Shown here in pieces: positions 18,263-22,346 of a stretch of 25,266 bases of DNA. The notes under the pieces were generated by a model, which was not told the DNA's origin, did not search any database, and worked only from the letters and a program-made list of their open reading frames with translations. The DNA lies in the IMG/VR virus record IMGVR_UViG_3300021590_000007; one strand, written 5' to 3'. Made by a program: the position numbers and the translations under genes. How positions within the stretch are numbered: the first letter of the stretch is position 1; every line of letters begins with the position of its first letter. Origin of the DNA: a virus.

Positions 18263-18406
18263 TGGATGGGGCAGGAGTCGAACCTGCATTCCCGGACAGA
18301 ATTTGGTGATCGGACTTCCCACCTTCCTGCTAGAAGGCTTCCATCCTATCTCTTTAATAAAAAGGATACGAACAATGCCCGGATCCTACCGTTGGACGAC
18401 CCATCC
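18263..18406 (-). tRNA. tRNA or tRNA-like gene with a 72-nt insert in the anticodon loop; isotype unresolved (nominal UGU)
   Basis: Acceptor GGATGGG/CCCATCC plus discriminator A; U8; D-arm GTCC-AACGGTA-GGAT; anticodon stem CGGGC/GTCCG; T-arm GCAGG-TTCGACT-CCTGC; no encoded CCA. A TTTATAT box lies about 40 nt upstream. Confidence 0.8.
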
Positions 18407-18461
18407 CAGATACTTTTCTTAACGCCTTTATGGACATACAAAAATATAAATAAGATCATAT

Positions 18462-18965
18462 CTAGATATAATTTAGAACGTACTTTTCTATTAACTCTCG
18501 ATGTTCATTCTTATCCTGTGTTGCAAATTTTCTGTGTATATCTTTATCAATGAAAACTACGTGTACATCATCAATATGATGTGCTTCCGTATTGGCTCTC
18601 TTTTCATTCAGTGGTTGAAAGCCGTATCCTCTCTGCCATGCACTATACTTTGAAAAAATATAAGGGGGTTTAATTACCCCCATTTGTATAAGACTAATTA
18701 GTTCACTAAAGCTTCCCCGCTTCCTCTGTCTTCTCCTTCTTTTCTTCAGGGCGGGGCTACCCAACCCAGGGCAAGTTCTTCTATACCTACTCTTCTGAGC
18801 AGGAAGTTCAGATGGGGAGGCTTCCACCATACTTCCCTTGCCCTCGGTGGACTTTTGATTTCCACCTTCCTCCAATAGAGTTCCTATTGTCACACTTTTT
18901 TTATTACGATTTATTTGATTAGTGTTACTTAGTCCTTTACTGGTCTTTCTGTTATCCATTGCCAT
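18462..18965 (-). CDS. HNH-like (beta-beta-alpha-Me) endonuclease domain protein with low-complexity N-terminus
   Basis: C-terminal RGYGFQPLN...EAHHIDDVHVVFIDKDIHRKF...NEH. GAGGAGGT RBS 8 nt before the Met codon at 18959. Confidence 0.55.
   Translation of the reverse strand: MAMDNRKTSKGLSNTNQINRNKKSVTIGTLLEEGGNQKSTEGKGSMVEASPSELPAQKSRYRRTCPGLGSPALKKRRRRQRKRGSFSELISLIQMGVIKPPYIFSKYSAWQRGYGFQPLNEKRANTEAHHIDDVHVVFIDKDIHRKFATQDKNEHRELIEKYVLNYI
18653..18885 (-). ncRNA. Candidate GC-rich structured RNA embedded in the HNH-like ORF
   Basis: About 53% GC over 18711-18880 (hand count) versus roughly 30% in flanking genes. Helices: CAATAG/CTATTG, GGTGGA/TCCACC, AGGGCAAG/CTTGCCCT, GGAAGT/ACTTCC, ATGG/CCAT, GGGTT/AGCCC, CCCCGC/GCGGGG, then GGGGG/CCCCC and a U-tract. 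G-U pairs favour the minus strand. Confidence 0.55.
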
Positions 18966-19462
18966 CTACCTCCTCTCTCAACTTCCTCCCACATTTTAGC
19001 TTGCTCAATTAGGGATAGCCTTAAATATCCATTTCTCTGTGCTGCCTTACGCTCTCTATTTCTTATCATTTCGGCTTTACGTTTTATTTCACTCGCTTTC
19101 ATTTCCGAATTTATAGCCAAATTATATAAGTGAATCATCAATTTTCGGTATGGAGACTTTGGATTCATTTGTTTTTTAAGCCATTTACGAATTTTTTGCA
19201 ACTCTTTTTGTTTTGCATCTCTTTCTCTCAATTCATTGAATCGCTGCGATTGTTTATTATAATATCTTGCTCTTTTTTCATTTTGAATCAGATCTATTGG
19301 TGGCTGATGACCTATTTCATTCCATAACGCATAATAAGCTGTTATTTTTTGTCTTTGCTGATAGTCTTCTTCATTCCTTATCGGATCTTCCCATACTACA
19401 TCAATATTTCGAAGATTATCAGGCACACCATTTAACATATATTCGATTTCTTTTCTAATCAC
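18929..19462 (-). CDS. Basic helical hypothetical protein
   Basis: 177 aa, GTG start with GGAGGTG RBS. Confidence 0.75.
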   Translation of the reverse strand: MIRKEIEYMLNGVPDNLRNIDVVWEDPIRNEEDYQQRQKITAYYALWNEIGHQPPIDLIQNEKRARYYNKQSQRFNELRERDAKQKELQKIRKWLKKQMNPKSPYRKLMIHLYNLAINSEMKASEIKRKAEMIRNRERKAAQRNGYLRLSLIEQAKMWEEVERGGRWQWITERPVKD

Positions 19463-20087: not shown

Positions 20088-20120
20088 ATTAGATTTTCCA
20101 ATATATAAAACATACGGTTA
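20088..20120 (-). promoter_or_regulatory. Type-P archaeal promoter (copy 1)
   Basis: TAACCGTATGTTTTATATATTGGAAAATCTAAT, homologous to the other three copies; contains a TATA box. Confidence 0.65.
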
Positions 20121-20563: not shown

Positions 20564-20596
20564 GTTAGATTTCTTGTTATAAAAAGCATGTGGTCA
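20564..20596 (-). promoter_or_regulatory. Type-P archaeal promoter (copy 2)
   Basis: TGACCACATGCTTTTTATAACAAGAAATCTAAC; 27/33 identical to copy 3. Confidence 0.8.
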
Positions 20597-21125: not shown

Positions 21126-21158
21126 GTTAGATTTAACTATATAAAAAGGATGTGGTCA
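21126..21158 (-). promoter_or_regulatory. Type-P archaeal promoter (copy 3)
   Basis: TGACCACATCCTTTTTATATAGTTAAATCTAAC, with TTTATATA box, upstream of the 21106 ATG. Confidence 0.8.
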
Positions 21159-22313: not shown

Positions 22314-22346
22314 TGACCATATCTTTTTTATAGTCTTATTTCAATA
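22314..22346 (+). promoter_or_regulatory. Type-P archaeal promoter (copy 4, divergent orientation)
   Basis: TGACCATATCTTTTTTATAGTCTTATTTCAATA before the ATG at 22358; upstream TAAGTAC shared with copies 1 and 3. Confidence 0.7.

Follow-up and report, generated by a model that had tools for sequence, protein, structure and literature searches.

In the 25,266-nucleotide (nt) virus sequence IMGVR_UViG_3300021590_000007 from IMG/VR (hereafter the window), a 167-amino-acid (aa) open reading frame (ORF) on the minus strand (18462-18965) reads through a GC-rich island, a genuine RNA element with a fold of its own whose family has not been described before. The stretch is translated, yet it evolves as RNA and not as protein, and a unit about 82% identical is carried by small plasmid-like replicons without the protein domain that the ORF goes on to encode. 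The explanation that we favor, and judge slightly better than an even bet, is a self-contained RNA cassette (18729-18929, minus strand) that moves between replicons, is selected as RNA, and is probably made as a discrete RNA binding a conserved factor. An earlier note, made from the letters of the window, had described an unclassified structured RNA tied to an HNH-like nuclease and had compared it to archaeal RNase P RNA, to HEARO and omega RNAs, and to intron-encoded endonucleases. No match to Rfam at gathering score was found in the window or in three relatives (L001-L003), and the pairings are conserved, in agreement with the description as an unclassified structured RNA; the comparisons fared less well, as discussed below.

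A Conserved RNA Fold

Relatives were gathered from three IMG/VR contigs and by a pattern scan of metagenome contigs, which together gave about 60 loci aligning to the ORF region with 78-95% identity; scans of IMG/VR found no relatives beyond the three. The fold was assessed in 48 distinct relatives (alignment A5), codon entropy in 45 full-length relatives, the reading frame in 50 distinct full-coverage relatives, a terminator-like hairpin in 52 viral relatives, and the residues of the encoded domain in 36 sequences. The GC island is real, with 50-nt bins reaching 0.46-0.58 at 18700-18849 and the structured core 0.52, vs. about 0.32 in the window. RNA from the minus strand at 18640-18900 has a predicted folding energy of -81.3 kcal/mol (z = -3.0), and none of 200 shuffled sequences was as good.

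RNAalifold, followed by explicit pair counts that were compared with 500 column shuffles and with 3′ partners slid out of register, delimits a structured core at 18749-18866 (minus strand). It comprises a hairpin, H1 (18861-18866 with 18846-18851), a three-way branch in which H2 (18837-18844 with 18768-18775) leads to H3 (18831-18836 with 18802-18807) with H4 (18824-18828 with 18811-18815) and to H5 (18797-18801 with 18788-18792), and a second hairpin, H6 (18762-18767 and 18760-18761 with 18749-18755). The core contains 37 pairs, and 99.6% of the 1776 cells that these make in the 48 sequences are standard. Both sides have changed in 9 of the 37 pairs, while column shuffles gave 3.6±1.0 and never reached 9 (0/500). 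When the 3′ partners were moved by one to three columns, 35-55% of cells paired and double changes fell at 1-2 pairs.

In helix H5, four of five pairs alternate among U-A, U-G, C-G, G-C, G-U, and A-U, and the peptide read across it varies (AQKSRY, VRENGC, VQENGY, TRKSRY, and ANKGRC). Ten sequences have G-C in place of an A-U pair of H4, and two have C-G in place of a U-A pair; the outer A-U of H2 is replaced by G-C in six, and another A-U by G-C in L024. The same relative carries G-C to A-U and U-G to C-G changes in H6, a hairpin that L035 extends by a 3-nt insertion. All three variants of the H1 3′ strand are wobble-compatible. Frequent, tolerated G-U pairs place the fold on the minus (sense) strand.

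These comparisons revise parts of the earlier picture. A pairing that the earlier note had likened to P5/P7 of RNase P RNA is H2, and as a pairing it was correct. The GGU-GGAA-GCC tetraloop hairpin gives way to H4, for which covariation favors GGUGR/YCAYC closing the loop AAGCCUCC; since substitutions at 18824 and 18826 have counterparts at 18815 and 18813, the GNRA-tetraloop reading was rejected. The conserved unit also starts further 5′ than had been placed, with its core from 18871 and the cassette from 18929, and at its other side 18682-18728 evolves as coding sequence.

The 8-nt loop AAGCCUCC of H4 (18816-18823, minus strand) is unchanged in 47 of 48 sequences. To judge from its letters, it could pair with a 5′ GGAGG (18869-18873) as a candidate pseudoknot; the two sides barely vary and so give no covariation readout, and plasmid copies read AGAGG on the 5′ side. 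A mutual-information search for additional tertiary pairs was dominated by one clade split and was uninformative. Other candidates were discarded: a helix of CCCCGC (18752-18757) with GCGGGG (~18714-18719) and a 5′ hairpin CAAUAG/CUAUUG (~18876-18893) are both broken by variants, and K-turn or C/D-box readings of CUGA fail on a G that is not conserved.

RNA-Type Selection Inside an Open Frame

The coding test combined per-column entropy by codon position, a sliding window, and Nei-Gojobori estimates of nonsynonymous and synonymous divergence (dN and dS). At codon positions 1, 2, and 3, entropy amounts to 0.30, 0.17, and 0.70 bits in the final 260 nt of the ORF, as in coding sequence, but to 0.16, 0.12, and 0.16 bits over the island, without codon periodicity; in the sliding window the coding signal begins near 18725. 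The nuclease-like part has a dN/dS of 0.04-0.17 with dS from 0.5 to >2 or saturation, and the island part a dN/dS of 0.35-1.28 with dS of just 0.09-0.39. The low dS of the island and its dN/dS near 1 mean that synonymous change is 5-10 times slower than next door and that amino-acid changes are not avoided. The earlier note had named conservation of amino acids without pairings as grounds for abandoning the RNA; the opposite was found, in that relatives keep the pairings and not the amino acids. The overlapping peptide is rich in S, G, K, R, and P, as had been read from its translation.

The frame is nonetheless maintained. It is open in 48 of the 50 relatives, and length differences in the cassette part are limited to 0, -3, +3, and +9. 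At its start, the ORF shares 36 nt with the 3′ part of an upstream 177-aa gene, and variation there falls in the third positions of that gene and not in those of the ORF. Between the cassette and the hairpin described below (18682-18728), variation is synonymous, as in ordinary coding sequence. In the two broken frames, the changes sit in the hairpin region, at its C-run and T-run. In L005 (270-800) the nuclease-like part is out of frame, with C6 instead of C5 and TGA where others have TGG, and L061 reads C4/T7; both breaks thus lie in homopolymer runs of the hairpin and U-tract, and could reflect sequencing error, decay, or slippage.

A Portable Cassette in Virus and Plasmid-Like Replicons

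BLASTN delimits the portable unit. In four plasmid-type loci (L004, L058, L085, and L086), the part shared with the viral query is restricted to query positions 52-252 (18729-18929), with 81.6% identity, and the flanks are unrelated. The cassette begins where the 177-aa gene ends, on the final base of its stop codon. Its first segment is an AT-rich leader of about 58 nt (18872-18929, minus strand) that is conserved in virus and plasmid copies, and in which RNAalifold found no conserved helix. Within it, as read by eye, TAATAAAA lies about 26 nt ahead of the G that opens the conserved GGAGGAAGG, and the leader is possibly a candidate promoter of archaeal type. At the other end, a purine-only tail, UGAAGAAAAGAAGGAGAAG (18730-18748, minus strand), which the ORF reads as KKRRRR, is kept in virus and plasmid copies alike and takes no part in the pairs of the consensus fold. 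The plasmid copies pass from this tail immediately into T5.

The best-defined plasmid copy is L058, a 4322-nt circle, as shown by its repeated ends. It encodes a 590-aa P-loop protein of replication type, whose relatives are often fused to primase domains, and a MarR-like regulator; the order is replication gene, short ORF, then cassette. A sister plasmid, L107, with a replication protein 86% identical, is without the 288-nt insert that holds the cassette. In L058 compared with L107 (5940-6700), this insert interrupts an ORF of about 33 aa downstream of the replication gene; over its first ~23 nt it is similar to the target on its right (17/21 matching), which makes a diverged repeat at the left edge. 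With a covariance model built from the structured core (R1), viral and plasmid copies reach 151-179 bits, and each replicon has a single copy. The same model found no cassette in more distant plasmids or in relatives of the replication gene (L104-L107), and a pattern scan of 185,579 species genomes gave chance matches only, in bacteria.

The order 177-aa gene, cassette, nuclease-like domain is universal in the virus lineage, where the 177-aa gene (18929-19462, minus strand) is always directly upstream of the cassette; its product had no Pfam, PHROG, or Atlas match. One locus, L013 (1-1404), joins the viral 177-aa gene and cassette to a right flank of plasmid type (T5, a 76-aa gene, and the MarR-like gene), and may be a true recombinant across the cassette or an assembly chimera. 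The C-termini of the 177-aa protein (18932-18990, minus strand) and of the short plasmid ORF (L058:4330-4322/1-77), both just before the cassette, read approximately ER..GW.W.I. BLASTP between the two found nothing, and the likeness may be due to chance or may mark a diverged part of the mobile unit.

A Terminator-Like Hairpin Downstream of the Cassette

The GGGGG/CCCCC hairpin and U-tract that the earlier note had seen are present at 18653-18681 (minus strand), inside the ORF, as a G5-N8-C5 hairpin followed by UUAUAUUUUUU, and were terminator-like by scan. Of 52 viral relatives, 51-52 have the same base at the third positions of Gly96, Pro100, Pro101, Tyr102, Ile103, and Phe104; the third positions of Val97, Ile98, Ser105, Lys106, and Tyr107 vary freely. 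The frozen synonymous sites indicate that the hairpin stems and the U-run are under selection at the nucleic-acid level inside a coding region. The hairpin and U-tract likely act as the 3′ end, or an attenuation signal, of an RNA begun in the cassette, to judge from their form and position.

A Nuclease-Like Domain Whose Family Also Occurs Without the Cassette

In a full HMMER search of 1.8 billion protein representatives, ORF residues 1-85 matched close relatives only, and residues 85-167 matched a broad family with the motif RGxGFxPLN...HHID...V.(F/Y)IP..H. The corresponding His-Me/HNH-like domain (18465-18713, minus strand) is the sole part of the ORF under protein-level selection, as judged by entropy, dN/dS, and homologues. 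The family includes proteins of 106-113 aa with their own start just before the domain and without the extension; P0006 and P0007 are examples, on contigs too short to show gene context. About 40 protein clusters of public collections (P0001-P0005 and P0040-P0075) translate the cassette/ORF locus, and the short “proteins” of 67-70 aa among them (e.g., P0003-P0005) are the RNA cassette alone in translation.

The label HNH-like, which was part of the earlier proposal, is plausible, though weakly shown, on the basis of an AlphaFold2 model and residue conservation. Domain residues N36, H45, H46, and H60 are invariant. The model (pLDDT 86) has two helices, a beta-hairpin, and a helix, with strands at 42-46 and 51-56 and a helix at 57-62, and it places His-His and the further His/Asn residues on a beta-beta-alpha core, as in HNH/His-Me nucleases. 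What the label does not have is a match to a curated HNH profile: the 167-aa ORF matched nothing in Pfam (E ≤ 0.01) or PHROG, and ten homologues gave no match either, apart from NUMOD3 in P0017. A profile search of the Protein Data Bank (PDB) by sequence found nothing for the domain, nor did Foldseek against the PDB at E ≤ 0.001. The best VIA-align row was SciA of phage T5, an HNH nicking endonuclease, with Z 3.3 and a root-mean-square deviation of 3.7 Å over 53 residues, a weak match that does not stand out from unrelated rows. Among named Atlas clusters, viral HNH families came nearest, at 0.84-0.86, which is below 0.9 and a lead only.

Probable Host and Neighboring Genes

The window is AT-rich and carries almost all genes from 1 to ~21100 on the minus strand. 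They encode, among others, an anaerobic ribonucleotide reductase, ClpP, a DUF47 protein, an ERCC4 plus helix-hairpin-helix nuclease, an Mre11-like phosphoesterase, a RecA-like ATPase, and a PriS-type primase-polymerase. No known phage matched the DNA of the window in a phage collection searched in near and distant modes. Four promoter-like repeats each contain a TTTTTATA box. They read TGACCA-N-AT-N-CTTTTTATA, mostly followed by AAATCTAA, at 20088-20120, 20564-20596, and 21126-21158 (minus strand) and at 22314-22346 (plus strand), and look like archaeal TATA-box promoters with a common upstream site; sigma-70 spacing does not fit. Replicons related to the plasmid-type ones encode a TFIIB-type zinc-ribbon protein and DUF8136. 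Because of this gene set, the TTTTTATA repeats, and the TFIIB-type zinc ribbon and DUF8136 of those related replicons, the window is read as probably part of a virus of an archaeon.

Downstream of the ORF lies a tRNA-like gene (18263-18406, minus strand) whose anticodon position carries a long insert; the gene was not called by ARAGORN (no tRNA in the window) or Rfam. A 13-nt string is common to the cassette and to this insert, but 12 of 500 shuffles reach it, which is within chance. A minority of relatives (L003, L005, L009-L012, L030, L056, and L080) carry Ro60 (TROVE plus vWA) behind the ORF and tRNA-like RNA, for example at L009:6715-8235, L005:751-2514, and L003:5299-6828. Ro60 is absent from the window, from L001 and L002, and from most relatives, where a 127-aa gene follows directly. 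Ro60-bearing relatives have a different tRNA-like sequence directly before Ro60 (L003:5000-5130), in which the acceptor, D, and T arms look intact and inserts are added; ARAGORN and Rfam made no call there.

Origin and Function of the Cassette

The explanation that we favor would run as follows. The cassette, built of the AT-rich leader of ~58 nt, a six-helix core of ~120 nt, and a purine tail of ~20 nt, is shared by one (probably archaeal) virus lineage and circular plasmid-like elements of ~4.3 kb, and would move between such replicons. The plasmid copies stand alone after the replication gene, with T5 as their end. In the order of events that we infer, a copy landed in an ancestor of the virus ahead of a small His-Me/HNH-like gene and removed its start, and the nuclease gene was rescued by an ATG with a GGAGGT ribosome-binding string, 36 nt within the 3′ part of the upstream gene. 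Since then the frame would have remained open through the RNA, with the fold and the invariant single-stranded parts still under selection. Translation through the RNA from an upstream start would explain why the frame is open despite a freely drifting peptide. A stable discrete RNA would be made from the early or replication operon, its 3′ end set by the G5/C5 hairpin and U-tract in the virus and by T5 in the plasmid, and its invariant pieces (5′ GGAGGAAGG, loop AAGCCUCC, and purine tail) would be offered to a conserved factor of the host or of the element. The small ribosomal subunit is one candidate partner, suggested by three Shine-Dalgarno-like strings and one anti-Shine-Dalgarno-like loop. 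The tie of the cassette to the HNH gene looks secondary.

Several points weigh against this explanation. The discrete RNA, its ends, and its promoter are readings of the sequence, and the domain of the host is one that we infer. Covariation largely tracks one deep split of the sequences, although several pair changes nonetheless fall at different tree depths, and no relative is less than 78% identical; some of the low divergence of the cassette might be due to recent spread and not to constraint. Furthermore, the frame used in the virus is open through plasmid copies as well (ORFs of 70 and 115 aa), and the cassette may encode a small basic peptide. A second frame is open across the core too, however, for compositional reasons.

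Among other explanations, we regard a cis-acting element as possible, though on the whole doubtful: the cassette would be a leader or attenuator for the HNH-like protein, or would protect the 3′ end of the upstream message (the 177-aa gene in the virus, the replication operon in the plasmid). Its start at the stop codon of the upstream ORF in both virus and plasmid fits such a role, as do the terminator-like hairpin, conserved at synonymous sites, between cassette and catalytic part, and the location of both broken frames at homopolymer runs. However, plasmid copies have no HNH-like gene behind them and end at T5, and an alternative pairing of GCGGGG with CCCCGC or the hairpin arm is not kept, six relatives having a G to A change that is uncompensated and synonymous. 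A plain stabilizer, moreover, needs neither invariant loops nor such identity between unrelated replicons.

A variant in which a mobile RNA gene has become part of the nuclease coding region, and in which the RNA and the nuclease (or the ribosome, by way of the three Shine-Dalgarno-like strings and the anti-Shine-Dalgarno-like loop) act together as a new RNA-protein unit, the functional folded RNA doubling as an obligatory translated leader, seems to us rather unlikely. It is quite unlikely, too, that the cassette is a selfish miniature mobile element inserted in frame in the manner of Rickettsia palindromic elements (RPEs), with a fold that serves its own movement only and no benefit to virus or plasmid. 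The presence/absence difference between sister plasmids, the diverged target repeat of ~23 nt at one edge, translation in frame inside an ORF, and hybrid contexts such as L013 are what one would look for in such an element. Still, there is one copy per replicon and only chance matches were found in the species genomes scanned, neither terminal inverted repeats nor a transposase was seen, and the slow synonymous change and kept pairs speak for selection after insertion.

Two further proposals assign the RNA a protein partner encoded nearby, and each is very improbable. In the first, the RNA would be the cofactor or guide of the HNH-like nuclease, a minimal RNA-protein nuclease of HEARO/omega type. 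RNA and domain adjoin in about 50 viral relatives, and the RNA lies 5′ of the ORF start and overlaps it, a HEARO-like layout; conversely, plasmids have the cassette without the nuclease gene, the nuclease family occurs without the cassette, and no HEARO match, RuvC/bridge-helix, or variable guide-like end was seen. In the second, equally hard to credit, the cassette would be a Y-RNA-like partner of Ro60, which is encoded ~0.5 kb downstream in several relatives. Ro60 genes do stand just behind the ORF and tRNA-like RNA in the nine relatives named above, and bacterial Y RNAs adjoin Ro60 genes, phages included (PMC4201824). The window, most relatives, and the plasmids, however, keep the cassette without a nearby Ro60; the cassette has no Y RNA match, no GNCGAA-type strand, and no end-to-end stem, and the tRNA-like RNA directly before Ro60 is the better candidate for a Y RNA. 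Finally, ordinary coding for a low-complexity basic N-terminal extension, with helices as accidents of composition, is scarcely credible: the frame is open in every context and homologues of the nuclease domain often have basic N-terminal regions, but dN/dS of ~1 and equal variation at the three codon positions, beside a neighbor with dN/dS of ~0.1, and compensatory changes that keep pairs while altering amino acids (the H5 variants) make a substitution pattern that contradicts it.

Significance

To our knowledge, structured RNAs have seldom been described in archaeal viruses and plasmids. The cassette RNA adds one with clear comparative support, a defined core of ~120 nt, and a ready covariance model, and its sharing by unrelated replicons marks it as a functional module. 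It is a clean natural case of an ORF held open across sequence that is selected purely as RNA, and a means of studying how translating ribosomes deal with a stable fold and a terminator-like hairpin in the midst of coding sequence. For gene callers and protein databases it is also a warning, as there are some 40 clusters in which the first half of the “protein” is a translated RNA gene.

Comparison With Known Systems

At E-value thresholds, Rfam searches of 18300-19100 and of plasmid-type loci returned only chance rows, with none at E ≤ 10 in 18300-19100. The element is therefore not RNase P, SRP, HEARO, Y RNA, or group I intron RNA as those families are modeled. For RNase P, what resembles CR-I/P4-P5 of the archaeal RNA (RF00373) is a set of short strings, among them GGAGGAAG and AAGUCC, with a GGGC helix after them, but the AAGUCC of the cassette belongs to the variable loop of H1 and to its 3′ strand, and neither RF00373 nor RNaseP-T matched even at E ≤ 10; the likeness suggested in the earlier note did not hold. 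A search for a P4 helix was likewise negative, since AAGUCCACC pairs locally as the H1 3′ strand, its variants keep that pairing, and the unit has no complementary 3′ strand.

HEARO/omega RNAs with IscB resemble the cassette in being structured RNAs of a few hundred bases that lie at, and overlap, the beginning of an ORF bearing an HNH motif, in mobile DNA. Unlike them, the cassette also lives without an HNH gene and has no guide segment that could be seen. The HEARO model (RF02033) found no match, no RuvC nuclease of IscB/TnpB size adjoins, and the protein is a domain of ~83 aa without RuvC, bridge-helix, or IscB architecture, so that a HEARO-type tie to the HNH protein finds no support. The analogy with intron-encoded endonucleases is not supported either, as the gene upstream is complete, with the cassette starting at its stop codon, and there is no split host gene; a group I intron was rejected on the same start and the absence of an Rfam match.

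With Y RNA/YrlA, the point of likeness is that some relatives have Ro60 and a tRNA-like RNA within 0.5 kb. The differences are that both ends of the cassette are purine-rich and cannot pair, that it has no GNCGAA-type Ro-binding strand, and that Ro60 is often absent; Rfam gave no Y RNA or YrlA match in the window or in the Ro60-bearing L003.

RPEs are mobile inserts translated in frame within host genes, and the cassette is similarly a small structured mobile insert, read in frame, with a little-constrained peptide. It differs in being single-copy, in having several helices rather than a simple palindrome, in strong purifying selection on its nucleotides, and in stand-alone copies with an oligo-T end. 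Of the hallmarks of miniature inverted-repeat transposable elements and RPEs, presence/absence polymorphism was found (L058 vs. L107), and many dispersed copies were not.

Hgc RNAs are high-GC non-coding RNAs of AT-rich hyperthermophiles that were found as GC islands. The cassette is also a GC island in AT-rich DNA with a stable multi-helix RNA of ~150 nt, although its GC content may come in part from an origin in a replicon of higher GC. In contrast to the Hgc RNAs, it is carried by a virus and plasmids and not by a chromosome, it overlaps an ORF, and it matched no Hgc family. In the dual-function RNAs SgrS/SgrT and RNAIII/hld, the peptide itself is functional and conserved, whereas that of the cassette is under no protein-level constraint; what the cassette has in common with them is that one stretch is both translated and acting, or selected, as a structured RNA.

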